Assembly (NCBI GenBank): GCA_964035545.1
Contig: OZ037768.1
Span: forward strand, 10,386,741 to 10,450,740
DNA: 64,000 bases
Source: Bugula neritina
Taxonomy: Eukaryota > Animalia > Bryozoa
Direction of reading: 5' to 3'
The first letter of the stretch is position 1. Each line of letters starts with the position of its first letter. The position numbers were made by a program, and so were the translations under genes. Below are positions 2,297 to 64,000 of the stretch, in pieces. A model generated the notes under the pieces. It had not been told where the DNA came from. It ran no database searches and worked only from the letters and a program-made list of their open reading frames with translations.

Positions 2297-5200
2297 TTAA
2301 GTTTCAATATTTCGATAATTCTCATAACCAGAGCGCTTTACATAAGATATCCAATAAATCATCAAAAACAACATAAATGAGCAGGGGAACACAACTCTTG
2401 AGACAAGATCCACTCTTGTGGCCATTCCCAATGTGCACCATTTCCTCCACCATTGTTGTATTCTTCCTGCCAACTGTTCATACCACTTTTTACTCTCATT
2501 ATTCTATAATATATTTGTTAATCGTAAGAAATAAATGCATGTAAATATAGTTGCATTTGCAGTGCAAATAGTATGTGTGTAATATGCACATGCTGTTATA
2601 TACAGCATCTATAATTAATAATATATTATGTTCTGTTGACAACAAAACATATGCATATAATGCCTGCATAAGCACATATTAACCGATTTTATGCAAATTC
2701 AATTTCACACTGACATGTTGAATAGATAGGCCCTACATGGCTTTCATATCATTCATTTAAAAACCAGATATTCTTACTATATAAATTATATAAATTGTTT
2801 CCTAAATTGTTCTCAAATAAATGTAAATATTATAATTAGTTGTACTGCTATAAAGTCTTTACAGCAAAACTAAATTATAAAGTATAACTAGATCAAGGAA
2901 TAGCAAAACTTTGAACTTTGGTAAAACTGAATTACATTTTCTTCACATCTTTCTCTGGTAGAAGATTGACTCATATCTTCCATCTCAAATGTATTGTTAT
3001 CTTCACCCTCAGGCAATGGCCTTATATTCTGTGCTAGACAATAATAAAACAACACCCGGCAATTGAAAATGGATAATACATTGCATCATATATCTTTACT
3101 AAAATTAATTCTAGAAGTTTTGTAACTAAATTATCACCTTTAATAAAGTTATTGAAATAATGGAAAGAGAGACAGTGAAATTCTGTGCGGTACCATTATT
3201 TGTTGCACTCCTCTGAGTCTCAACACGAGCATCATGTTGCTAAGATACTAAGTTTCTAATCACTACACATACATAAACATTGTAGAGTCTATATATCAGT
3301 GATAACACAAGATATAGTGAGATACCTAAAGCTGACACATGTATGCTATCATAAAGGAAGTTAGATTCACTTGAGAGAACAAAAGAAGTTGCTAAAATTG
3401 TATAGTGACTAGTGTGTACACTGTCACAAATATTCGATTAGTCACAGGGTAGTTCAAATGAAGTAGAATTTAACAGCAGAATAACTATCAGTAAGAAAAC
3501 ACAAGGGCATGAGCTTTTTTCTGGTTTATATTTATAAGTCAATCATTTTATTTATAACATTACAGGTAACAAAAAATAGTTTTATTGTATAATTTAATGC
3601 CCTGAGTTAGTTTTCATTTCGATTATTCACACTTCAGTCATAGTAAGTAGCAACAAAAAAAGTTGCCATAATTGTATATAGAATAATTTTGTGGCTTACA
3701 AACCATCAACGTCAACTTGTTGTAGTCTTTTTTTCTTTACATCTCTTCTAGAGAAATAGTTGACAACTCCAAATTCTAAGAAAGCTCCGAGCACATAGAT
3801 TTGGCAAACCCAAAGCCACACATCAGCAGCTATAAAATGTTAAATAATTTTGCATTTCATGTATGTAAACAATCACCAGCTTTTTAGCATAGTAATAATA
3901 ACAGTTAGTTTACCTGTTGGCTTCAATCATTTGCAACTTTAATATTTTCCATTTTGATATTAAGCTGCCATGTTTCATTACAAACTTAAAAGACAGTTTT
4001 ATTTATAACTTATATTTTTATCAAGTATATACGCAAAGCAGACATGAAACATAGTAGTCTTACCTTTGATTTGAGCTGTTGATGGTAAGACACCTTTGAC
4101 AGCATTTATTTGGTTGCTAATAGCAACCATTGTAAGAGCTCCAAGAGCACACCGAGCTTGTATCACCTTCTTGTCTATCCAGAAAGACATCCAAGTTACT
4201 ATGACCATTAGGAGTGACGGTAAATATATGTCCCATATATAGAACGACACATTCCTGTATGTATACAAACTTATACTATATTCATGTATGTGTGTACGTG
4301 TGTGTACGTGTGTGTGCGTGTGTGTGCGTGTGTGTGCGTGTGTGTGCGTGTGTGTGCGTGTGTGCGCGTGTGTGCGCGTGTGTGCGCGTGTGTGCGCGTG
4401 TGTGCGCGTGTGTGCGCGTGTGTGCGCGTGTGTGCGCGTGTGTGCGAGTGCGAGTGCGAGTGCGTGTGCGTGTGCGTGTGCGTGTGCGTGTGCGTGTGCG
4501 TGTGCGTGTGCGTGTGCGTGTGCGTGTGCGTGTGCGTGTGCGCGTGCGTGTGTGTGTGTGTGTGTGTGTGTATGCTCACAAGCAACTTACCAACTGATAA
4601 CAGACAATTAGAGTTTCAACCATTCTCAAATTTTAAAATAATTCATTTTTGAACACAAATAGCTTATTTATTACCGATATATAACACTAAAAATGAAATA
4701 ATTTCTTTGTCTATTCTAAGCTTAATATAATTGTTTTTCTAAATAGACTTTTCTCATATGTACCTGTAAAAAGTGATGTGATAAGTGAGACTAGAGAACT
4801 TTCCTCTATGTTGGTCTGTGGTGACAGAACCCTGACAGGTTACATACCAAGTATCCACTCCTAGAGAGGGGAGGGCAGCACTTAGTCGTTTATCAATATT
4901 TATGTTTTCAACCCGATTTCCACTCAAACTTTCATTCAGCCATGACAGCTTCATAATATCGACATCATATTTCCCTGAAAATGTTTTTATCTGTTTTTAT
5001 TAAAGGCTATCTGGGAATTTTAACGAAAAAACTTTGTAAACTTTTTGGAGCTAACAGATTTAATGCAAAAACACCAATTTCAATGATAAAATAAAGGTGA
5101 TATCATGATAACTTGATAACATATTACGTATTATAGAGCTCGTAGTGTAATCGTAATAAAAGCAAGGCAAGGCTTAGCTGGTTAGAAGGTGTAGCTTACA

Positions 5201-10300: not shown

Positions 10301-13089
10301 AAGTATAGGCATTCTACTCATTGTATATTTGTATGTTAGTATGGTAAATATAAGGTAAAATATGGAATATATAGCATAATTTTTATCTTCCATATACAAC
10401 CAATTTGCACTTTAAGTTATGTATTCTATTTTCACATAGGTATTTTGCCAAGCTTTGGTTGCCTGACATTGGATTTAGCAATGCTAGGGGAGGAGCAATA
10501 CACACAGTGACGGAGCGAAACATTGGTGTCATGCTCAAACCCGGTGGTCAACTTCAAATGACCTCTAGGTTGGTTTGATAAGTATCATAGTATATGCTGC
10601 ATATCATAATTGTAAATATTGCCAGAGTCTACAGCACACTTATATGAATATAAGTTATATTTCAAAATCTGAGATATTGTAGGGTGGTGACAACATGCAA
10701 TTCAGTTAATACAGTTTACTTATTCATAAACCAGTTTCACATGCCTTGAAACCAAATAGCTGTATACAATGAAGGGCATGCGTTCATGTGTGTGTGCTTG
10801 CGTGCGTGTGTGCGTGCAAGAGTGCATGTGATAATATATTTCTGTTTATGGTTTTGACAGAGTTGCAGTTGATCTCTCATGTGAAATGGACTTCACTTTC
10901 TATCCTTTAGATACTCAGCTGTGTGAGCTTCAACTGCAAAGCTGTAAGTGCTGGTCACTAATTTTTCTTTCAACTATGTGCAATATGTTGAAATAAACTG
11001 GAATAATGCTTGCATTGTGCTATATGTATTGACACATATTATATTTTTCCTATATTCTATTATAGAAATCTATAAATTATGTTTATATTTATATATTTAT
11101 ATTTTTAACTAAGCTTTTAAAATTTTGACTTAAGAAGTTGAGTCAAAGTTTGATGTTTATTTTCTATAAAATTTTAGCTCAATTAGATAATTTCAAACAG
11201 ATCACATTATATTTAAAACATGGCAAAGTGTATATTTTATGTTTAGATTATTTTGTAATGAGAAAGTCCTATAAAATAAACTATGTTATTTGTACCATGA
11301 CGGTATTTAGGGAGATACAGCAAAGAAGAGCTGAGTATATCATGGGACAACAAAGCACCCTTCACCATAAAAGACGGGGCCACAATAAGCCTCCCTCAAT
11401 ATAATGTGAATTTGAATTTAACTGGAAACCTTTACAGACTTCTTGAAATTGGCAATGCACCCGAATGTGTCGAGACATATAAAAGTAATCCCACTGACAC
11501 TATTATTGCAGCTGCAATTATTATTTATTAAATATTATATCTATCCTCAATTTACAATTTTACACATTTGACAAGGCTCTAGATTGATGCACTTCTAAAC
11601 AAATCTAAATACTATGCTATGCAGCTAACAAGTAGTGAATTCTTTATAGTTTGAATACATTTTTGAATGAAATTGTAGCTTTATTTAGAGTTGTCTTTAC
11701 ATGTTTATAATTATCTGATACTGGCTAAAGCATCATAATTTTTATTATAGTAAAACAATTATTATTTATTTTAATCTCTCAATTAATTAAGATTTTTGTA
11801 GTGTTTAACTTTCAGTTGAAGAAATTTGTTTGAACAATTAAGATATTTATAGAGCCTTATTTAGATATTATATATTATGGTTCTAATGCAACTAAAAATT
11901 AACTGTCAATGAGTAATATTTGTGGCAGTAAAATAATTAATCAATAATGATTATTTTGTTTATTATATTTTATGAAATTTAATCTATATTGATCACCATT
12001 GTGTGTTACATTTTAGCACCAAGTTTTGGCTATGGGAGTTATGACTGCCTGGAGTTGAAATTCATTTTCCAACGAAAGCTTAGCTTCTATGCTCTAGATC
12101 TGTATGTCCCCTCTGCGCTAATAGTATTAGTATCTTTTGTGGCTCTCTTTATTGACTACAATATTTTACCAGCAAGGTATGTGAAGTAACACTAGGTTAG
12201 ATCTAAAACAGAAAAAAGTGCAAATTTCATATATAATTATAATAATTTGAAAATAATGGTGTGTGAGTATAAATTGCTCTGTCAGCAAAGCATGATCAAC
12301 TTTTTATCACAGTTGCTTCTTTTGCTGTTTGCTTATTGCAGCCCGTCTGTATGCCTATTTTATCATTTTTTTCAAATGATATTCCACTTGGGGTTTTTTT
12401 CTCATGCGTTTAAATATCATTTTGCATTGATTATAGCTAAAGTTCTTCATTGTAGAATAGTTACAGGGTCGCTATCAATAACAGCCACAACCAACATATT
12501 ACGCTCATTGAAGAGACTCACTCCGCCTGTCTCCTACGCCAAGGCGGCTGATGTCTGGATATGGACGTGTCAATTTTTTGTCTTTGCCGTCTTATTAGAG
12601 CTCGGAGTTGTCAATGTGGTCAACAGAAAAGTCAAAAAGTTCCATAAAGAAGAACACAAAGTGAGTCTTGCTGTTTAATCAATTTGGAAGCTTTTATTTT
12701 GAGTTATTATGCATACTTGTAGTTTAATTTTAAAAGATAAATAAGTTACATAATAAACTTGTTTACAAGAATTTTAGTGAAGCAATTAAAACTATATGAT
12801 TTTTTTAAAACTTAGTTCAAGTGTATCTATTTATTTTTCCTCACCTACCTGTATTTACCTATAACCCGTAGTTACTTACTCATCATTTTATCTTTCAACA
12901 TTATTTCTCTAGGGGAAAGGGTTTTTCCTCAAAAGTCACCCAGCAAAGGTTGTGGACAAAGTTTCAAGAGTTTTCTTTCCAGTTAGTTTTATACTGTTTA
13001 ACATTGTGTACTGGAGCTACTTCTACTCGAGATCAATGTATAATCATGAATATACAGATATAATTCGGGATAAATTATTGCATCTCTAA
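7319..13089 (+). CDS. Cys-loop ligand-gated ion channel subunit B, anion-channel branch, 9 exons, 424 aa
   Basis: Exons 7319-7398, 9799-9911, 10149-10302, 10440-10568, 10861-10943, 11311-11484, 12017-12176, 12456-12660, 12913-13089 total 1275 nt. Signal peptide MMRIMFSSIMTWCLLVLAAQPLQA, WKDYRL, LWLPDI, Cys-loop CEMDFTFYPLDTQLC, loop-C Cys pair, PAR motif, PPVSYAKAADVW, VDKVSRVFFP. Confidence 0.92.
7832..9582. mobile_element. Non-autonomous hAT DNA transposon (1751 bp) in intron 1 of subunit B
   Basis: Perfect 14-bp TIR CAGGGATGTAGTGG / CCACTACATCCCTG; perfect 8-bp TSD CAAGTCGG (7824-7831, 9583-9590); repeated subterminal GTATGGYCTAGAA motifs; GC-rich subterminal hairpin 9478-9545; no transposase ORF. 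Confidence 0.93.
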
Positions 13090-26689: not shown

Positions 26690-27620
<931 letters not shown>

Positions 27621-30600: not shown

Positions 30601-30689
30601 CTTTTCTCCTGTATATATAAAACGCTTATATGCCCTGTTGTTGATCATTCAATCTTTGAACGAGCTTTACAGACATCTCAATATTCAGT

Positions 30690-31517
30690 ATGTTTAGACT
30701 TAATCTTCTCTGTGCTACTGTAGCAGTGGTCCTGCTTGCCATGATCATCACAAGAGCTGAGGGACAAAAAGGTAATATTTATTAATTGGAGTTGTTGTGA
30801 AGTGTTCACTGTATTGCTTGATGCAATGCAATGATTCAACAAGAGAATGCAATTCTAACAAAGAGCAAATGCTTCATATAATTATTATGTTCAACATGTA
30901 GCTGTTTGCATACGTACAATATAATTATACAGCTACAATATGTTATGCATTCATATATTACAACAATGAACTGTAAATGTGGAAATTATCAACTCCAGAG
31001 CCAAACTCTGAATATAAACAGACTGATTGAATAAATATTTTCTGGTATTTAGAATTAATATTTACGAGGCAAAGCCGCACAATCGATTTTGTTGCAAAAA
31101 GAAGAGTAGCTGTTAACTGAACTGCATGGTTTGCCTGTTTAAAGATAAAGATGTCAATTGGCTATAATTCATAAGGATACTGTTATAATACTCAAAAATA
31201 TAACTCAAATTGATCAATTTGGTTCTATACCGTTTTATTTTGCCATTATTACGTCTTCAGCTGATCAATAATGTATTTAGTCACAATCCTATCTAAATCT
31301 AATTCACTTTGTTTTCGATCCAGGTTATGATTGTGAAGCGACAGGCAACTTCTATACCATAGTTAAAGGGACGAACTGTAGAAAGTTCCTGCATGGTACA
31401 GCCAGTCTTCCAGCAAAAGAGCTAACATGTCCAGAAGATTTGGCCTTCGATAAGAGCGTCTGCGTTTGCAACAGAATTACAGCATTCAAATGTGATGATC
31501 TCAATGTTGTTGGCTAA
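30690..31517 (+). CDS. Secreted 91-aa protein with one variant chitin-binding type-2 (CBM14/peritrophin-A-like) domain
   Basis: TATA at 30612. Exons 30690-30771 (signal peptide) and 31324-31517: GYDCEATGNFYTIVKGTNCRKFLHGTASLPAKELTCPEDLAFDKSVCVCNRITAFKCDDLNVVG*. Confidence 0.85.
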
Positions 31518-33246
31518 TTGCAGTTATTGGCTTATGGAATTTTCAAAATAAAATAATATATATTTAACCATTTGTTTATATTTTTGCAAATTTTATTTAA
31601 ATTTGGCTGTGACGGGAGTTGATACTGTATGCAGTGGATAGTAGTCAGCTATACAGTGCAAACAATGGCGCAGCCCTAATGCACTATGCCATTAAACTTC
31701 CAGAAACAAAGCCGTATTAAAATAATATCAACATTGTATTATAAGAATAAACACTGCGTGAATATTTTTCACAAATAGCTGCACTTATGAAAACTTTACA
31801 GAAATTAAGTTACTTTAATACCTTTCAGTATATGCATGATGCTGTTCTATCATGCAATATTTTTATTAAACAACAAAACTGTCAGCAATTATTGCTGGTA
31901 AAACCTTGGCAGCTTAAATTCAAACATTCATATAAGGTGCATATTGAAGTACAATAATTATTAAGATACAACTTGCATATGCAGCATCATAAACAATCTC
32001 AGATGAAGGTGGGTACAAAATATTGGGAATAAATGATGAACTCCTACCACCATTAAAACTCAAGTGTCAAATAAAATTATTATATGCATATTGAAATTTT
32101 ATATTTACAAGAGCACTAAATTTTAATTAAAACCCTTGAACTAATTTCAGATAGCTAAAACTACCTAATACCTACTTACCTTGCACATTAACATGACCAA
32201 ATTAATCAGTTTCGTTTTCAATACATATTTTATTGTTATTTGAAAAAATAAAATATAAATTTTATAATAACAAACAAAAATATTATTATGACAGTATGGT
32301 GATTGTGAGGCATACGTAACAAACAAGATATTATATATAGCTCATAGTTTTGAAGTTCACACAAAGTACAAAAAAAAACGTTACAATAAATTGAGAAACA
32401 TAAGTGCTGCTCATTAAGAGAGGGGACCCAAGAACCCATTTGAAGAATTACATGTTGGAAATTGCTTACCCCTGTATCTAAAAATACCTCCGACATGAAT
32501 CTTAAAGAAGAATTATAATTCATTCGAAATGAAAAAGTGTAAAGAAAAAGTGTTTAAAAAAAAACAAAACATTGGCCATTTCTTGAATTTAAACTGTAAT
32601 ATTCAACAGAGTGTAGATGAAGCTGGTCTCAAGGTACAACAAATGTTCAGCACTACTACTTCACACTGCTGACTGATTGTTATATTACAGCTCAATATAA
32701 GTAGAGGTTATATTAGCAAATAAAACCAAGTGTTAAAAATAGCTGATCGATATAGTAAAATGTTATTATAATTTTCTCAATATGTTAGAACCTATTGTTT
32801 TATACCCCCATAATATATTATAAAGATGTGAATTGTTGAAAATGTCACAAATATACTCATATAATCACTCTCACTTAAGTTAGTGCAAGCTGCATTATAT
32901 TATACATGAATATAATGTTATAGCCCTCTGAAAGAGGCTTTTGAAAAATAAATCTAACCTACGGTGGCCTGGGCTAGCATACATTTAGAATCTTCATTGT
33001 AAACAAGTCAATTAACAAAGTATTATTGAAACTTTTAGGGATGAGTCTTAATCAAGAAAGTTTATCAACAGCACCTGCCTGTTCACAATGGAACAGAGCT
33101 TTTTGCTTTATAATATATGGAAGAGTTAAGTGACACTTCTTAAAATATTATTAAATTATCTTTTGCAAAATATAAACAGTCCATGCGCATAGTTACTGAT
33201 TATTAAGCCTCCGAAAGAGCAGCACATATACATTTTAATAGCCAGT

Positions 33247-35277
33247 ATGTTCAGCTGCCATGTTTTCTGCGCTACTATAGCAGTGGTGCTGGTTGCTATG
33301 ACGACCACCAGAGCTGAGGGACAAACAGGTAATATTCATTAATTGGAGGTGTTACGAAATATAAATAATCAACTATGTGATATTTTAATAAATAAATGTA
33401 ACTTGACAAAAAGAAAGAGACTTTAGAAAAATTCATGTTTAACCGTAACTATGACGACAGTGACTACAACAGTTATGTATAGTTCAGCATGTGATTCTAT
33501 TAGTAACCTGCAAAATTGCAATATGCATATGTTTAAATATAGTTGTGCTGTATCTACTGTTGAGTGCTCAATCATATGTTAGTATTAGAGCAGGATGAAA
33601 TGTTAAATATTAAAAGTGAATCACAAATTAGAGAGTAAATTTACATAAACCACTTTTAAAATTCAGCCAAATTATGTCCATTCCCACATACATGTGCAGT
33701 TAACACACGCAATGCGACATTGAATTTGACCAGTGTATAGAGTCAATAGCACATTCTCAAATGTGTTCTTTTATGCAGCAATCATAGGACATGATAATAC
33801 ACATTACATTTCTATCAAATACGCAGCAAATTGAGCTCATGTTGAACTATTGGTATTGTAGGTGGTAACTACTTTTGTGAAGAGGCAGGCAACATGTATA
33901 CAGTAGTGATTGGTTCAAAATGTCGCAATTTCACTGTTTCAACAGACACACTACCTGCAGTGGAGAAAATTTGCCCCCCAGGAACGGCATTCGATACGAC
34001 ATTGTGCACTTGCAATTATGAAACAGCTTTTATATGCAAAGGTAATGCCACAAGCTGTTAATATTGTGTGGTATGACGATATTTTGCATGTCTTATAGCA
34101 ACAAAATAGTTGATGAAATAGCCAGTTGAATTTCTTTAACTTTTGATAAGGCTCATTTGTCAACCTTTTATAAGTATAAAAAGTACAATTAAGGCAATAT
34201 TAGTCAGGCTTAGTCATATATTGATTATTTGATTATTGGTTATATCTGATGATTATTGCATTGATCACTGCGGTACTAAAATATTTAATAAGTTTTATAA
34301 AGGGATAAAATTGCACTTGGCTATGATTCAGTTATAATATAAAAACACATATTACCTTTAGCTACTTGCAAGTTACTCATAACAACTAAAATAGGATTTT
34401 TTCATAACTTAAATATTTTGGGATCAAAACCCTATGCTTCTTACTGAAACTCAGAATAATGAGATTATGAGTTAGCAACCCGCACCTCGTTATACATTAT
34501 TATACATAAACTTGGTTAACAGTATGAAGTGAGTCCACCAGACTATCAGGTTAGCCCCAAATAATAGAAGGGTGGATATGAGAGTATACTAAAAGGCTAC
34601 TCCATACTACATCTGCACCCCTAAGCTTATACAGTACATAGTAGAAACTTATTGTAGAGTTGTGTAGTTTATGTAAGTAATAATGTCATTCGGCTACATG
34701 TAATATCTTGAGTCTCAGCATCCTCTTCATGGAGGGAACAGGATTGGAGATCTTTCCTGATTTTGTCCTTTCATCTTTGCTTTGGGTGTGCAAATCATAG
34801 ATGAAAGGACAAGGTAAGGTAAGATCTTCAATCTTGTCACCTCAAAGAAGAAAATGCTCGAGACAGGGTTAGGTGGAGAAGCCTAATTGAGCTAGACCTC
34901 TGACAGCCACCCACTACCCAAACAGGACAGAGTGGAGATAGGTAAGGATGTAATATCTTGAGTGAATTGTGTGGTTGGTCTGGCAGTGTAGGGTAGGTGC
35001 TCACTCCACATTGCTAAGCTAATCTGTTAAGATTCAACCTTCCCCTCATCTTAACATGTTATTCTATAGTTTCTTGCATGCAGATTTCGACTGTGAATTC
35101 AGTGGCAGTTTCTATGGCATAGTTAAAGGGACAAAATGTAAAAAGTTCGTCCAGGGGGCGGCACAAATCAGAGTGAGTGAGCTATCATGTCCAGATGGAA
35201 CGGCCTTTGATAAAAATCTGTGTGTTTGCAACAAGGAGGCAGACTTTACCTGTGACAATGACAATGTTTTTGGATAA
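33247..35277 (+). CDS. Secreted 151-aa paralog with two variant CBM14-like domains
   Basis: TATA at 33171. Exons 33247-33328, 33862-34041, 35084-35277 (phase 1-1; 456 nt). Domains ...CPPGTAFDTTLCTCNYETAFIC and ...CPDGTAFDKNLCVCNKEADFTC. Confidence 0.85.
34714..34947 (+). mobile_element. 234-bp insertion with a long hairpin and 16-bp TSD
   Basis: ATGTAATATCTTGAGT repeated at 34698-34713 and 34948-34963; foldback over about 34713-34863. Confidence 0.8.
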
Positions 35278-46575: not shown

Positions 46576-49456
46576 TCAATCGTTGTTCTGGACACAGCAA
46601 CAGAAAAACTTCAGAAATTTATTTCTTCGACTCCGGGGTGTGACCGGTTCTTGAACTGATTCAAACTCTACAAAATATAGCATCTCTTTTGACATATAAT
46701 AATAATAATTGTATTTCTATACAGGTTTTTCATTGGTTATATTTGATTGGCTGTTTCGTGCAAATCTGCGGTGAATAATATTGAGCAAATAAGGAAAAAT
46801 ATCGTTGGCCTAATTTGCTAAATCATGTTAGGGAAGTTATTTAAAGTTTTGCCAAGGTATAATTTCACTTGCATCATTTCATACTATCGAGGAAATTTAC
46901 ATATACATTTGGGTAGAGAGCTTTTTCTTGACTCATAATAATGCTTAAAAATAATAAACTCTTGTATGAATCAAAAATACTTACCATTACGGGCCTCAAT
47001 TGGTGCTTCAACACAAGTTGATACTTTTGTCTCCTTGATTGCTTGTCTGACAATATTAAGAGAGGGAGGAGTGTTGAGTGAGCTTCCATCAGCTACCAAA
47101 GTTTTTGTTACAAAATATGTGAAATGTGTTGCAGTTTAAATTGTTAGTTCAAGACTAATATATTGGTTACCAGTTGGCTAATGGCTTGTTTGTAATAGAC
47201 AAACATGTTTCTTCATTATAAACTCGCAAAATTGGAACTATTCTGCTTTTGTGGATGAAAATAATTAATGAGCTTGATAGAAATTCACACACAAATCAAA
47301 ATTTTGGTAGTAATTTTTTAGATATTGTCTCAAATATGACAGACCCCTCCCTATATATTCTTTATTGATATCTTTGAGTGACACAAGTTTTATTTTTACA
47401 ACTATTTTCTGAGCTTCAATATTTACCAGACAAAGTGGAAAGTGCTGGGAGCTGTTCCTTATCACTTTCTTTCTTCTCCTCTTCCACTGATTCGCTATTC
47501 TTATTGCCATTTTCTCTCTTTTGTTCACCAGGCTGCAGTACACCTTCTCTTACCATCTCCTCTATTAAAATAATTTTGTTTTAATTCAAAAACATATTTC
47601 TATATTAAAAACAGCTTTTTACAAAATTATATAATGCTGGCCTTATCATATTTTATATGAAAATATATCATATAAAGTATTGTGGAATGTTGATGAATTT
47701 TACTGATTAGCTTTTGGTTTGCTTAGAATTCACTCATTCACTAAATTCTTCCCAGAGGCAATGCTTTCATTCAATTGCTGAATTATTCAAACAAGAATTA
47801 ATTATATCTTTAAATGCAAGTTAACAACTGAATACTTGACTAAGGGCAAATAGAAAAAAGAGGTTTTGCAAGATAATTATTAAAAAACGCAAATGCACCA
47901 AGAAATATGTAAAAAAAAACAATTAACAAAATGTAGATGAATAAAGTAGCACTTTGATGCTTTTAATTTTGCTATACAAAAATATTGAAGTAATATTATA
48001 CCAGGCAAATGGTGGAGCTTAGCAGAAGTTTCATTGTTGGTCTCTTGTTTTCCCAGGGGGACTTCTTTTATTTGTTCAACAGCCTTTCGTATCATATCAT
48101 CACCGTCTGTCTTTTTGACTTTCAACTCCTTGATATCCCTTTTGAAAGAACTTAAATCTTCGGCCAACTCACCTAAAGAAATAAAACCAATTTATTTAAA
48201 AATTGGACCTTTTCTAATATTACTGTAAATGTCAAGTAATATCTTGTTTGTTTGACATTTTAGAACGTCAGATGTGAGGCTTCTAAAGAGGTTCAAGCTC
48301 AGCTTCATTTGTCTTCTCAACTCATACTGATGCTCAGTAATAATAAAATTTTGCTATATCAAATATACTAACCACTATGTCCTTCATTAGGTGATTCAAT
48401 AGACTTTTGTAGTTGTCTCTCCCTGACTGCTTGTCTGACACTGTTGAGAGAAGGAGGGTCTCCACCAGCCAGTAAAGTTTCTGGTACAAAATATATTAAA
48501 TGTGTTGCAGTTTATAGCTGTTAATTTATAAATATCGATTATCAGTTGGCTAATGGCTTGTTTTTAATGGAAAAACTTGTCTCTTCCTTATAAACTCGCA
48601 ATATTAGAACTAATTCAAGCTTTTGGATGTAAATAATTATGAGCGATCAATAGAAATTCACACACAAATCAAAATTTTGGTGGTAATATTTTAGATAATG
48701 TCTCAAATATGACAGAACTATTCTTTAACAATATCTTTAAGTAATATAAATTTTATTTTGCTACCTCTATTTTCTTAGTTTTAATATTTACCAGACAATG
48801 TGGAAAGTGTTGGGAGCGTATCTTCATACACCTGAATTTTGGTCGATTTCCCGATAGCGGTAAAGGTTTTTGGTATGTTGTTGCAAGAATACAATTCCGT
48901 ATGCGTTGAAAGCAGCTCTGCTTTCTTTAAACCATTCTCGTTTTTATCCTTGCTGCTACCAAACAAACATTCACTAAGTCAAACCACTATTTAAAAATGT
49001 ATGATGTCACATTATGTTGTACTATGCTGCACTCATCATGTAGAAAGTTTTAATATCCCACAACATAATTGAACTAACAACATCTCAGTACTAGTAGATT
49101 CACAGGAAATATGTCTGTATGAAACTCATTCTCACCTTTTAATCCTGCGTTGATCACCTGGGGCTTTTCTTTTCAACCGGTAATACTCATAAAAGAGTAT
49201 TCCAAGAACAAAAACATTGTAAAAAGTCGCCTTCCCTTTACTGTAATAAACAAATAATTATCCTACTCTAAATTACTGTTTTCCAAAATATCAAAAAACT
49301 AAAGCAAAACCTTTTATGTATGAAAGTGTCAAATGATAAAAATAACAAAAACATTGACGATAAATAAAGAAGAAATATAACTTACTAAAACAACTTTACT
49401 GCCAGAATGGCGGACACCAGCAATAAAATTACAGAGAGTAGTAGCAGCAAAATCAT
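46576..49456 (-). CDS. Orphan membrane protein, 8 exons, 323 aa; N-terminal hydrophobic segments, low-complexity middle with internal duplication, C-terminal basic/FFCCC tail
   Basis: Exons 49456-49386, 49240-49136, 48973-48792, 48480-48373, 48172-48002, 47561-47427, 47092-46985, 46667-46576 total 972 nt, all GT-AG and in frame. MILLLLLSVILLLVSAILAVKLFY...PRSRRNKFLKFFCCCVQNND*. Confidence 0.75.
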
Positions 49457-58500: not shown

Positions 58501-59555
58501 TTCATGTTTATGGCCAACATTCATATTGTAACAATGATTGTTAATGATTGTAATTGTGCTCCTCCGGTCTCCCCGGTTGAAATTGCGACCATGCTTGATC
58601 AGCGCTTGCATCCAATGTTGGCTAATACTACATTATCATTATGATTATCATTGGAAATTTCTATATGCAGTCATCTGGCTCGACATTCAGTTGATGGATA
58701 TTTTCTGATTCGCTGATTAGGTAGCGTCTCTGATTGGCTTATTAATTTAAACCGCACGATATTATTTCAATGCCCTCAACTGTTATGGCGTACACGTGCT
58801 CTCCAACTCCAATAACCATTATGATAGAGTTATTATGACAACGCCATTACAACTTCTACAAGATCTTACTATGACTCAATTGAAGATGCTCTTAAAGCAA
58901 TAGACAATTTTGAAATCAAAAGTAAAACTAAGTATGGTTGCACTGATGGTCACTTTAGGCGTATGCAGCGATTAGCTCAAAGTCAAAGTCAATCATTAAA
59001 TTGAAATTCATTATAATTATGATTATCAATATCATTATGATTATAATTACCAGCTCCAAGTCTCACTCAAATTGGAAGTGAGCCTGGTATTGGTACTGAT
59101 GATGGTATGTAAAACTAAATTTATTTTTGAATTTAAGTTCGACTATACATATGACTATCACTATGAGTATGTACATCATCATCATGATCATTTTTAAGCT
59201 GTCTCATGACTCAGCTGTTTAATATTTATACATTTACTTTTAGTTTTTAGCCTATATTTTAATTTTATAATTATTGTGCCCATCTCTTTTAATTGTAAAT
59301 TTATGCTAAGGAGGCTATACTTTCTTATCAATCAATCCTTCAACTACATGTCTTAGTATTGCTATTCTGTATTCAGTCTACCTTACACTTGTAGTGGAAT
59401 TATGGACTTTAGATTTATTCAATTCTGATTCTCATTCCACATTCTCATCTCCTAACCCCCAGCTCTACCCCACATAAATTAACTTTCCATTGGTATGCAG
59501 ACTAGAGACAATTAATGTCATCACAATAGCCAAGCTGTCTCCTACGGCTACTGTC

Positions 59556-60026
59556 TGTAACATTTACTTATTTCGTTACAATTACAATTACATTTTCGCT
59601 TTGAAGTCAGTTCCCATACGTCAAACACCCTGATCCTGCAGCTACGTGGCTTTATCCTTATATGGAGATGCAGCCACCCTTGTGAATGTGGTAACCTATC
59701 CTGAGCTAGCTGACGTGGACCCAACTGGCAGGAAGTCCTAGGTATTACAGCCACCCTTGTAATACTGCAACCTATCCTGAACTAGCTGACGTGGGCCTAA
59801 CCGGCAAGAAGTATCTTGCTACACCCAACAGCTATCTGAAGTCACTTCTCTGTAAGACCCAGCTTCAGGTAGACGTACCCAGAACGAGAGGAGTTATCTA
59901 CAATCTACAAAGTAATTACCATAAATTATATGCATATAATACTGTTATAGTAAATCACTAAAGCATAGCCATATTAGTAACAGCTATACAGTAAGTTGTA
60001 GCGGGATACCACAAGATCCCGTTACA
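59556..60026 (+). repeat. 5' LTR of the retroelement
   Basis: TGTAAC...GTTACA termini, internal about 77-bp tandem repeat, followed by PBS-like TGATGGAGGTGCC. The 3' LTR is outside the window. Confidence 0.75.
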
Positions 60027-61192
60027 ACATTTGATGGAGGTGCCATTTCGGTTTCCAACTCTTGCATTGCCAAGCATTTACTTGCTGATCACTGAGGTTA
60101 ACCACCCAGTTCTACTTGGCCTAGGTAGCTTTTACTGCCAGGCTATTGTATTGAGGGCTCCCATAAGCTTGAGGACAAGCAATTTTTAACTTGAGGTGGA
60201 GTTGAGAGATCATTGAGTGTATTAAAAAAAATCACTTTGGAATAATCACAAAAAGTAGACCTAAATAATAAAGAAACATATTACATACAGTACTGGTCCC
60301 ACGCTACATAAATTTACGGCAATACCTAATTAAGCGTTATATAAATACAATTAAAATTTTAGTGGTTGACCTGGAGTCCTGGTATTAAATACCAAATAAT
60401 ATATTAGTACTGTCAATTTTTAATTCCAAGATCTAACTTCTTTTTATAAACCTTATTACTACCTGTTAGCTGTGTTATTAACACTACTTTCACTGTTACA
60501 GATAATATTACTGTAAAACAATTAATTATATTGCCAACATAAACTCTGCCGAGGGAACAATCGCACTCCCAAAGAGACTGGTGAGTGCTAACCTCCAACC
60601 CACAACCTAACCAGTTAAAGTAAGTTTACATATACAATATAGAACTACCCCTAAGGCTAACACACGTCCTACATCTAGAGCTTTCATTTAAAAATTAAGT
60701 CTAAATATAGTTGCTATAATAATTTACAACTCTAGATGAATAAGCTAAGATATAAAACCTAGACTACATTATTCAGTTAGAAATAAATATTAAGAAACTT
60801 GGACAGCAGCTGCAATCATGTACCTAACATTTGAATTCTAATAATCAATTTGGATAAAAAACAGGGGATTTATCTTAGAATTAATCTAATTAAGTAGAAG
60901 AATTGTCTAATTAGGAAAAGAAACACGAACTGGCATAATTTAATCTAATTTCTACATTCACAGGGTAATTACAAATTACCTAAGATAGTCATAGTGGGGT
61001 TAATTACATCATTCTACTGGAACAGAAAACTCACTCTGCTCCAACTTATTGTTCAACAACTAATTAAGTATATTATTAATTAAAACAGTGACTCTGATTA
61101 GAAAACAATTAAATACACAAACTTGAAGTATACCTGCACTAATAATTCATAAGAAAAAAAATTAGCCATTATTAAACAAGCACACGCATTGC

Positions 61193-62651
61193 ATGAGTAG
61201 CAACAGGCCAGTAACACGGAGCATAACCAGACAAAGACAAATGGCTACCTCAGGAGAACCAACCTCATTTGCCCCTACCACAACTAGCTCCCCTGACATT
61301 ATGACACAACCTCTCATAACAACCACCTTAACTTCAACTACCCTATCTGACCATACTGACACTCCACGAACCGCAACAACCACTATGTCCAACTTGACCA
61401 CAACATCCTACGAGACGGGCACGAGACCCAAAACCCCAATACATACGCTCACCTCGAAAGAAAATATAGTGAAGTTCTGGAACTCACTATCACCGGAACT
61501 ACGACAGGACTGTATTAATAGCAATACTTCGACAGGCCCTACACCCAGCCTTACGACAACACCACCATGGCTTGACAACTCAAGCACACATGACACCCAC
61601 ACTACAAGTCTCTTCAAATCAACCACGACCTTCCCGCAGCATACTTAATACCAACATACCCACTACGAACCTATTCCAAACCCAGATAATAGCAAGCGTG
61701 GCTCCCAACGTAGGTAGCCTGCCATCCTTTTTCGGCGACTCTACTGCACTCTACTGAGTCCTGGGAAAACTTCATAGAGAAATGGGAAATCCTGATGGCC
61801 CTTCATCAGTATGATAATGAACAGCTGGCCCTCGCCATACCTGCCAAGCTTACTAGTTCAGCTTGGCAAACATATCGAAAGGTAGTAAAGCAGGCGCCCG
61901 GCAGTGCCACAAACTATGCTGTGCTTAAACCCAAACTGGCGGCAATGTTCCAAAGGAGCAACCCACTCCTAGAGAAGAGCCTCTGGAAATTGTCGCAGGG
62001 GAAGCAGACGGTTGGAGAATTTTTCACAGAGGTAGTTTCACAAGGCCAGTCGGCATTCCTGGATATGCCGGAGGAATACAGAAATAAGGTACTGACGAAC
62101 GTCTTCATAGCAGGGTTGAACGAAGCCCATCAGAGGGATATCCTTCTGAAGGGTGAGCTCACCCTGCAGCAAACCTTAGAGGAAGCAAAAAAGCTGGAGG
62201 CAGTAGACGGGGCATTCAAGACACAAAAAATAAATTTGATAGAGTCAGAAATAGTTGCTGAAGTGAATAACACCCGGAGCCAAGCAGAACTCATAGCTCC
62301 TCTGCAAAAACAAATAGATGGACTGGCTGAGCTAATAAAAGCTCAGTCAGTAAGATCCAAAGAGCAAGCGGAGAGAAATTACAGAAATAATAACTACCAG
62401 CCCAACAGATACCGCGGTAGAGGACGCAGTAGTAACCGGGGTAACAGTAGAGGTGGCTATAGCCAAACACAGCGCTACCATAACCAAAGCGCCCACAACC
62501 AGCATCAGGCCCCTTTTAACCAACACGGAGGACCATATAACCACCAATCACTACACAGATACAATAATGATCGAACAGGTCAAAACTACGGCAATGGGCG
62601 TGGGCAAAACTCTTGGCCCTGCAAGTCTTGCGGGAACCAGCACTATGGGAG
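61193..62651 (+). pseudogene. gag: gag with two frameshifts (Thr-rich N-terminus, capsid domain, coiled coil, N/R/G/Q-rich linker, split zinc knuckle)
   Basis: LPSFFGDS[T]ESWENFIEKWE...LTSSAWQTY...LSQGKQTVGEF...FIAGLN...TLQQTLEEAKKLE is a retrotransposon capsid signature; CKSCGNQH knuckle start. Confidence 0.88.
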
Positions 62652-63172
62652 TGTCACAAATTCTGAGTGTACATATACTGGGTTTTTCCTAATGATTATA
62701 TACGAATGTTCATAAATATTCTAGACTGATCAAAGAGATGGGTCATTGTTCATTGTTATTGTTTTCATTAGTCATGTTAACTACTGCCCAGCAATGTAAA
62801 CAAGGTGTTGCGCAATAATTGCGAAATAACCATGGAAATTCCAATGTTTTGTTTTGTTTTGATTTTCTATAAATAGTATTGGCATGTGGGGAATGTTTTC
62901 TACTAGAATCTTCTGTACTGGAATGCTTGAGAATATTCTAGAGCTTTTTGTTTACTATAAATACTGAGGCAGTTGTGTTTACAGTTCAGTTCATTCTCGG
63001 AGTTCATTTTTATACATTCATCTGTGCATATCTTACTAGAGAAATAAAGTCTACTTATATCCACAACTCTATTACTCACAACTGGATTAGCAAGCTGTAT
63101 GCTACTTGTCTATACACTTCTGACTACCAGACTTTTCGAACTCGTCACACTGCTACCAACAGTTTTGTGACA
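62652..63172 (+). mobile_element. Solo LTR (521 bp) of an unrelated LTR element
   Basis: TGTCACAAA...TTTGTGACA termini; 5-bp TSD GGGAG at 62647-62651 and 63173-63177; TATAAATA at 62868 and 62956; AATAAA at about 63043; AT-rich relative to flanks. Confidence 0.93.
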
Positions 63173-64000
63173 GGGAGCAAATGCTCTAATGTGAATGTCG
63201 TCAGCGACCTCGGTCCTGACCAGTTTGCATTCCAGTTCCTAAATCAAGATCCAGGCCAGGAACATGTTGATGCCGTAGAACTGACTCCCAAAGCAAAAAG
63301 ACCGAAGGCCAAAAGTAGAAGAGGTGGCAAGAAATTCTCAGTCATAAATGCAGTACAACTGGCCATGTTATGCTTGCTAAGCTGCTTCATTGGCTGTGGA
63401 GCGACCCCGGTAGAAGCAAAAAACCCCATGGTATGCGGCTCTCACCATACTGACCAACCCCACTTGTTCCGACTGAGCACTAACTACACCTGCCCCGGAC
63501 ATGACAAGACTGACCCTAAACGACAACCCCAGCAGACTAAAATCATGGTGTACAAACCTAACACGATAGAGTGGGAATCGCTAGCATATCAATGCAAGAA
63601 GTTTAAATCGGTAGTCACCACGTTGGTGTCTTTCTTCTCCGATGTGAAGGTCCGTGATGCTCACATAGAGAACCGGCCTATCATGCAGAGAGAGTGCACC
63701 GACATGGTTGCCTCTAAACACTGTGACGCGGGTGAGCTTAAGGGTGGAAATGGTGTCTTCACTACGCGCAACAAGGTCGAAGCAGAGTACAAGCATTGCT
63801 GCAAGAAGCGATTCTTCTCAAAGTATCAGTGCAGCATAGTTAGAGCGACCGTGTACAAAAGGCACGAGAATAAGGAATTTGAGTCCACTGCAGGTGATGT
63901 CCGTCATTGCAAATATGACGATGGAAGCTGCAGATTGGACGACGGTTCCATTCTCATATGGGAACCACGGAAGTAGACCTACTGCAAGCACACGGAGTGC
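63173..64000 (+). pseudogene. End of gag, internal signal peptide and env-like glycoprotein ectodomain (class III fusion protein-like); TAG at 63974-63976 probably premature
   Basis: Basic run then AVQLAMLCLLSCFIGCGATPVEA; sequon NYT; AYQCKK...TTLVSFFSD...ECTDMV...C...CKYDDGSCRLDDGSILIW; frame continues TYCKHTEC after the stop. Confidence 0.72.

Follow-up and report, generated by a model that had tools for sequence, protein, structure and literature searches.

A decayed env-bearing LTR element in Bugula neritina with relatives that carry Gag and a predicted class III Env in a single protein

Introduction

The end of a 64,000-nucleotide stretch of the Bugula neritina genome (contig OZ037768.1; hereafter the window) raises the question of whether an LTR element can carry Gag and an envelope glycoprotein in a single reading frame with no pol between them, or whether such an arrangement was left by damage to a gag-pol-env element. 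A sequence-only reading of the window had favoured the former and had taken the locus for a new lineage with a new gene order. Comparison with relatives, structural models and the contigs of sister copies leads us to a reading that we hold with good confidence, namely that the window contains a decayed 5′ half of an env-bearing, likely Ty3/gypsy element of the GAG-ENV-POL type, whose intact relatives encode Gag-Env as one protein and whose pol would lie downstream.

Structure of the element in the window

The last 4.4 kb of the window correspond to the 5′ half of an LTR element, set in AT-rich genome. A candidate left target-site duplication, CTGTC (59551-59555, no strand assigned), whose partner would fall past the window end, precedes a 471-bp 5′ LTR on the + strand (59556-60026), recognized in the sequence by its TG..CA ends, a 6-bp terminal inverted repeat and an internal 66-bp repeat. 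Contig depth over this LTR was above that over the element interior in run X1, and no second LTR copy matching 59556-60026 was found within the window. The LTR is followed by an AT-rich leader of 1.17 kb (60027-61192, +; GC 0.32), delimited from the ORF listing and containing no + strand ORF of 70 aa. Within the leader, a primer-binding-site-like stretch (60035-60044, +) has 9/10 bases complementary to the 3′ end of tRNA-Ala, by hand comparison with the tRNA-Ala ends listed in PMC13524379 (supplementary file 1).

Other features were seen upstream of the element. Neurotransmitter-gated ion-channel exons (PF02932) from two genes on opposite strands are located at 4002-4226 (-) and 12196-12675 (+), and a 152-aa frame at 26731-27189 (+) resembled by eye the C-terminal end of a LINE reverse transcriptase, with no Pfam match. 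Local duplications at 30673-35156 and 46970-48817, with blocks 75-96% identical and spacings of ~2.6-3.8 kb and 1.37 kb, are probably duplicated exons.

The coding region of the element is interrupted by a 521-bp secondary insertion (62652-63172, no strand assigned), probably a solo LTR left by an unrelated high-copy element, judging from its ends, empty sites and depth. The insertion has TG..CA ends, a perfect 9-bp inverted repeat, two TATAAA boxes and one AATAAA, and a GC content of 0.34 vs 0.48-0.49 on either side. It is flanked on both sides by GGGAG (62647-62651 and 63173-63177), a 5-bp duplication, and splits the zinc knuckle of Gag between the His and the last Cys. It is a member of a very high-copy repeat family, present at hundreds of times the single-copy depth (summed contigs in run X1 gave 23,000-65,000 vs ~109 on single-copy pieces, depth being a rough guide).

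Sister-copy contigs joining 62646 directly to 63173 without the insertion were found in 5/7 different runs (X2, X3, X4, X5 and X9). Run X1 had a loose end of the same kind at the insertion site, and run X8 had no 62646-63173 joint. Three of the runs, X4, X8 and X9, may be RNA. In addition, the Bugula neritina gene model P0005 was colinear across the insertion, with residues 130-262 aligning to 62227-62652 and residues 261-531 to 63173-63997. The empty sites in sister copies together with the colinearity of P0005 therefore indicate a nested insertion within one continuous gene, and the proposal that its removal restores a single gag-env frame was borne out. A further joint, in runs X4 and X8 (one sample), skipped 849 bases (62647-63497), its short side being only 30 letters; this would be a sister copy without the linker and signal anchor. 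Among the joints shown, none skipped the entire capsid region.

Gag

In the window copy, gag is spread over three frames by two frame changes between ~61,530 and 61,760. The first frame holds a Thr/Ser-rich N-terminal piece (61193-61648, +), identified from the ORF listing and from a match to P0005 in which 61406-61531 and residues 43-86 show 45% identity. The middle piece, in the second frame (61649-61757, +; from the ORF listing, with frame changes on both sides and limits that are approximate), resembles by eye the pre-capsid motif of P0007 and P0014. The third frame (61758-62651, +) encodes the capsid domain, a coiled coil, an Arg/Gly/Asn-rich nucleocapsid region and the first part of the zinc knuckle.

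The capsid piece was 34-40% identical to P0007, P0014, P0018 and P0019. It was matched by PF03732 at E 9.3e-05, just under the cut-off, and the same family was over the cut-off in P0007. The capsid model had a pLDDT of 87, and its top Foldseek rows were the PEG10, PNMA2, Arc and Ty3 capsids at E ~0.01, with none at E<=0.001. No match was obtained when longer proteins were searched with the capsid piece, although this search is insensitive, as P0007, P0014, P0018 and P0019 match locally. The CX2CX3HX4C spacing of the knuckle, as earlier described, is common to P0004 and P0005, and six other relatives have CX2CX4HX4C.

The Bugula neritina gene models P0004 and P0005, which may contain introns, were both found to be without the capsid block, ~190 residues being absent at the same junction around residue 120. 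This gap may reflect a falsely called intron, a deletion common to both or a genuine spliced form without the capsid.

Linker, signal anchor and Env

Past the insertion, the frame resumes with the knuckle end and a linker of ~50 residues containing two V-[ND]-[AV]-V motifs, followed by a basic run (63179-63334 in all, +; basic run 63290-63334), a hydrophobic segment and a Cys-rich domain from 63419, in the order given by the sequence-only reading. The hydrophobic segment (63341-63397) has a mean hydropathy of 2.12, in line with its description as signal-like. Together with a predicted cleavage region it forms a putative internal signal anchor (63341-63418, +), which lies at the same position in relatives. 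The segment had been described as ending in VEA, and alignment with relatives suggests that cleavage may instead occur after 'CGA'.

The remainder of the window (63419-64000, +) encodes the N-terminal third of a predicted class III (gB-type) Env ectodomain, assigned from 91% identity to P0001 and from the P0001 fold, and runs off the window end. A premature TAG is present at 63974-63976, and homology continues to 63997. Judged from its sequence, with two gag frame changes, the nested insertion and the env stop, the window copy is dead.

No protease or RT was found between the knuckle and Env in the window, and tblastn of the whole window with five pol-bearing relatives gave gag and env matches only. 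This agrees with the earlier statement that protease, RT and integrase are absent between the two genes. The window Env piece (185 residues) had no informative Pfam, PDB-sequence or Atlas match. A sub-threshold scorpion-toxin Pfam row (E 0.18-0.47) was rejected as a chance match of a Cys-rich sequence.

The Env fold was judged on P0001, the relative 91% identical to the window ectodomain piece, using an AlphaFold2 model built with 12 sequences. The model was of modest quality overall (pLDDT 56.6, pTM 0.32), with pLDDT >70 over most of residues 61-270. Its top PDB match in Foldseek was HSV-1 gB (E 1.9e-17), and its BFVD matches were nyamivirus-, chuvirus- and rhabdovirus-like glycoproteins (best E 9.8e-27), headed by those of Beihai rhabdo-like virus 3 and Midway nyavirus. 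In VIA, the top 14 rows were all class III fusogens or domains of them (best Z 10.6, rmsd 27.5, 345 aligned). Global TM-scores were 0.2-0.28, low because the domain arrangement is poorly predicted.

By prediction, the Env of the window's family is a class III, gB-type fusogen. The proposed likeness to rhabdovirus and chuvirus G was thus correct as to class and not as to the nearest group: VSV-type G was rejected as the nearest match, since herpes gB and nyamivirus-like glycoproteins rank ahead of it. The stretch TTLVSFFS had been suggested as fusion-loop-like, and in the model 'SFFS' is placed at the tip of a long hairpin (model strands 75-95 and 102-111), where a fusion loop would be expected. 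PF24664 matched P0012, P0013 and P0021, below or above its cut-off.

Relatives encoding Gag and Env in one protein

The part of Env lying beyond the window can be followed in P0001, where the ectodomain leads into a transmembrane helix and a 90-residue tail that closes the protein; the expected transmembrane anchor is present in relatives. In seven relatives (P0005, P0007, P0012, P0014, P0018, P0019 and P0021), a single protein comprises the knuckle, linker, signal anchor, Env and transmembrane helix, with 55-93 residues from the knuckle end to the ectodomain and no protease or RT motif in any of the seven. The short linker is kept and the linker motifs are conserved at 35-56% Env identity. 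The layout read from the window, Gag, signal anchor and Env in one frame without intervening pol, therefore recurs in all seven of these relatives.

A wider search gave 233 representatives, the listing being confined to the best 150. Of all 163 fetched proteins with this Env domain, 50 had a knuckle upstream of Env in the same protein. It was located within 501 residues of the Env start in 47 of these 50 and at 1,360-2,373 residues in the other three, two of which are BEL/Pao gag-pol-env proteins by Pfam. A protease motif followed Env in 11/47. P0165 is a complete gag-env-PR-RT-RH-IN protein whose Pol has its best match to Ty3 (E 2e-113). Two proteins, P0036 and P0047, each contain aspartyl-protease domains on both sides of Env. 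P0015 and P0006, which cluster with P0014, were called as separate Gag and Env proteins, the Gag ending in the linker. These separate calls, the missing capsid block of P0004 and P0005 and the protease domains upstream of Env in P0036 and P0047 weigh against a uniform one-protein layout; we read the separate calls as probably reflecting a damaged copy.

Several additional observations were made among the relatives. P0132, a BEL/Pao protein, and P0137 carry Env plus NADAR and nucleotidyltransferase-like (MTPAP central) domains. P0028 and P0071 are deposited under bacterial MAG names and are likely animal contigs in bins. Scans of metagenome contigs, viral contigs and prokaryote genomes found no related locus. 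An assignment of the window element to BEL/Pao was rejected, as no Pao peptidase, RT or integrase lies between the knuckle and Env and the BEL-like matches fall outside the window's clade. A domesticated host gene was likewise rejected because the element is multi-copy, LTR-flanked and decayed.

Clade, tails and conserved motifs

An Env tree of 57 rows was made by a quick method without bootstrap from the rows covering profile positions 30-415, leaving out rows that do not cover them and the near-duplicates P0005, P0006 and P0073. The window's family was placed within an 11-row clade (SH-aLRT 100) comprising nine proteins with a tail and then a stop, one truncated at the transmembrane helix and one that ends within the ectodomain. 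All 18 rows with an in-frame protease fell outside this clade, as did two other tail-then-stop rows. In the 10 full-tailed clade proteins, all relatives rather than the window copy, the ORF stops 73-136 residues past the transmembrane helix. In the relatives with a protease in frame, the protease motif occurs 75-227 residues past the transmembrane end, close to the clade tail lengths, and is often preceded by a W-P..Q and V-N-A-like stretch resembling by eye the clade tail ends.

Late motifs ([LVI]YPxL, P[TS]AP or PPxY) were present in 9/10 clade tails, the exception being P0021, with a shuffle chance of 0.03-0.08 for each tail; here as for the terminal Gln and V-N-A-V sets, the features were noticed before counting and the proteins are related, so that chance figures overstate the case. 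Among the tails fetched after the late motif was noticed, 2/3 carry one. YPxL, PTAP and PPxY are established late-domain types (PMC7995964). A C-terminal Gln was found in 7/10 clade tails vs 6/150 other fetched proteins; it is present in all four sub-branches of the clade, and the remaining three have Arg, His or Asn as the last residue. The pattern V-[NDS]-[AVSH]-[VI] had 10 matches in 373 linker residues vs 3 in 3,570 ectodomain residues. Its narrower form V-[ND]-[AV]-V is found behind the capsid, at two places in the linker and past the transmembrane helix. By pattern, the linker motif is absent from P0012 and P0021.

Comparison with known elements

The gene order has already been published, including for Bryozoa. 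Elements of Nematoda, Bryozoa and Platyhelminthes with a gB-type ENV in GAG-ENV-POL order have been described, and ten such bryozoan elements were catalogued (Chary and Hayashi, eLife 2026, PMC13524379). Three of these, Cpal_errantivirus_4, _5 and _6 from Cryptosula pallasiana (HSV/gB-type ENV, cysteine configuration C2b, PMC13524379), have env between gag and pol and a gB-type class III Env, as we infer here, and share with the window element LTRs and a tRNA primer site. By hand count, the Env of Cpal_errantivirus_6 is identical to window positions 63530-63961 at 76/144 residues (53%) with no gaps and 8/8 Cys, and those of Cpal_4 and Cpal_5 look as close by eye. Unlike the Cryptosula elements, the window copy is decayed and read only as far as env. 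The novelty claimed for the lineage and its gene order mostly fails. The main text of PMC13524379 makes no statement on gag and env sharing a frame and mentions no late domains, tails or read-through; its figures and ORF files may show a fusion.

Several features of the GAG-ENV-POL errantiviruses (Metaviridae) are found in the window itself: an LTR with TG..CA ends and a tRNA site (one LTR in the window), a Gag capsid and knuckle, and env directly after gag. A predicted gB-type Env with signal and transmembrane segments was found on P0001. A Ty3/gypsy PR-RT-RH-IN region after env was seen in distant relatives such as P0165 only, the window ending within env. The assignment to Ty3/gypsy, based on the relatives and the capsid model, is likely.

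The planarian Burro/GYPSM1 is a gypsy element with env in frame after gag and before pol and with matches to mononegavirus glycoproteins (Arkhipova and Yushenova 2019, PMC6431247). Its single ORF of ~4,900-5,100 aa includes cargo domains and an in-frame Pol (PMC6431247), whereas the window's clade has a linker of <100 residues and a stop after the Env tail. Nematode endogenous retroviruses (NERV) have env and pol flipped, as cited in PMC13524379. An in-frame protease after the Env tail, of the Burro/NERV type, was found in none of the 10 full-tailed clade proteins. NERV, as Sacco and colleagues reportedly described them in 2022, are restricted to nematodes and have a continuous gag-env-pro-pol ORF with a nyamivirus-like glycoprotein and Pol in the same frame. 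A glycoprotein of that kind fits the BFVD matches of the P0001 model.

In the structural polyproteins of flaviviruses and alphaviruses, a capsid, an internal signal sequence and a glycoprotein of fusogen class II lie in one chain. The echo of these viruses in the window element is one of topology and goes no further than analogy: their capsid is unrelated, their fusogens are of class II and they have no reverse transcription. No description of a Gag-Env-stop layout was found in the literature covered, subscription papers and bioRxiv supplements being outside that coverage. The stop after the tail in the clade, the late motifs in the tails and the Gln ends may be new points.

Discussion

The layout of the window could in principle have been produced by an in-frame deletion in a gag-pol-env element, and the matches do include BEL/Pao elements in which gag-pol is followed by a related Env (P0129 and P0132). 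We consider this origin hardly credible. The relatives share the layout with no pol between the knuckle and the signal segment, the short knuckle-to-Env linker, with conserved motifs, is common to seven proteins at 35-56% Env identity, and 47/50 proteins in the census have the knuckle near Env. Even one old deletion common to all relatives would make the layout ancestral for the clade.

The one-protein reading suggests how such a product might be assembled. Gag would be made in the cytoplasm. The basic run, together with the hydrophobic segment, would act as an internal signal anchor sending the ectodomain into the ER, where host signal peptidase would free the Env N-terminus. The second hydrophobic segment would stop transfer and return the tail to the cytoplasm. 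The chain would thereby cross the membrane twice, with Gag and the tail cytoplasmic and the ectodomain lumenal. Cleavage by the element protease may take place at the V-[ND]-[AV]-V motifs that follow the capsid, the knuckle and the transmembrane helix and that precede the anchor, so that Gag would come free of the membrane, and the YPxL and P[TS]AP motifs of the tail may recruit ESCRT for budding. Recoding where the Gag-Env frame ends, through read-through or frameshift, could yield Pol in smaller amounts; Pol would then be carried into particles by its link to the Env tail, with no direct link to Gag. The sequence features of the tails suggest such Env-tail-driven budding and recoded Pol. The window copy itself would be unable to follow this route because of its two frame changes, nested insertion and stop.

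How pol is expressed is the least certain part of this scheme, with the chances of recoding rather than separate expression about even. A Gln codon before a stop favours read-through. Pol of MLV is made by read-through of the gag stop (PMC4132726). We propose, tentatively and as an outcome that is on balance unlikely in its entirety, that the clade moved the Gag/Gag-Pol switch to the end of Env. Gag-Env would then be abundant and Gag-Env-Pol, made by read-through of the Gln-stop, rarer; Pol would be packaged on the fusogen tail, and the tail rather than Gag would carry the late domains for budding.

It is also a real possibility, though short of an even chance, that the same Gag-Env protein is made and pol is expressed alone from a spliced or internally initiated RNA with its own start codon, the terminal Gln being incidental. 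Every full-length clade protein ends after the tail, 3/10 tails have no Gln end, and PMC13524379 accepts as much as 2,000 nt between ENV and POL and refers to three ORFs; however, the in-frame protease of distant relatives lies at about the distance where clade tails end, and the Gln ends extend across all four sub-branches. An improbable alternative is that the family is non-autonomous, encoding Gag-Env only and borrowing Pol from a helper. This would be consistent with the lack of any pol seen for the family, with the capsid block missing even in two Bugula gene models and, weakly, with the empty capsid-piece search among longer proteins. Against non-autonomy, full RT and integrase were required for inclusion of the Cryptosula elements with ~53% identical Env, whose LTR ends lie 11.3-12.4 kb apart (PMC13524379).

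The literature covered gives no worked-out account of how an LTR element assembles when a membrane protein sits mid-way along its polyprotein. The clade of relatives that encode Gag-Env as one protein offers handles on this problem in its short conserved linker with candidate protease sites, its stop where relatives read into protease, and the late motifs on its Env tail. If the roles proposed here are true, the clade would add a third mode of controlling Gag:Env:Pol ratios and of packaging Pol, and would provide indirect evidence that these invertebrate elements budded as enveloped particles.
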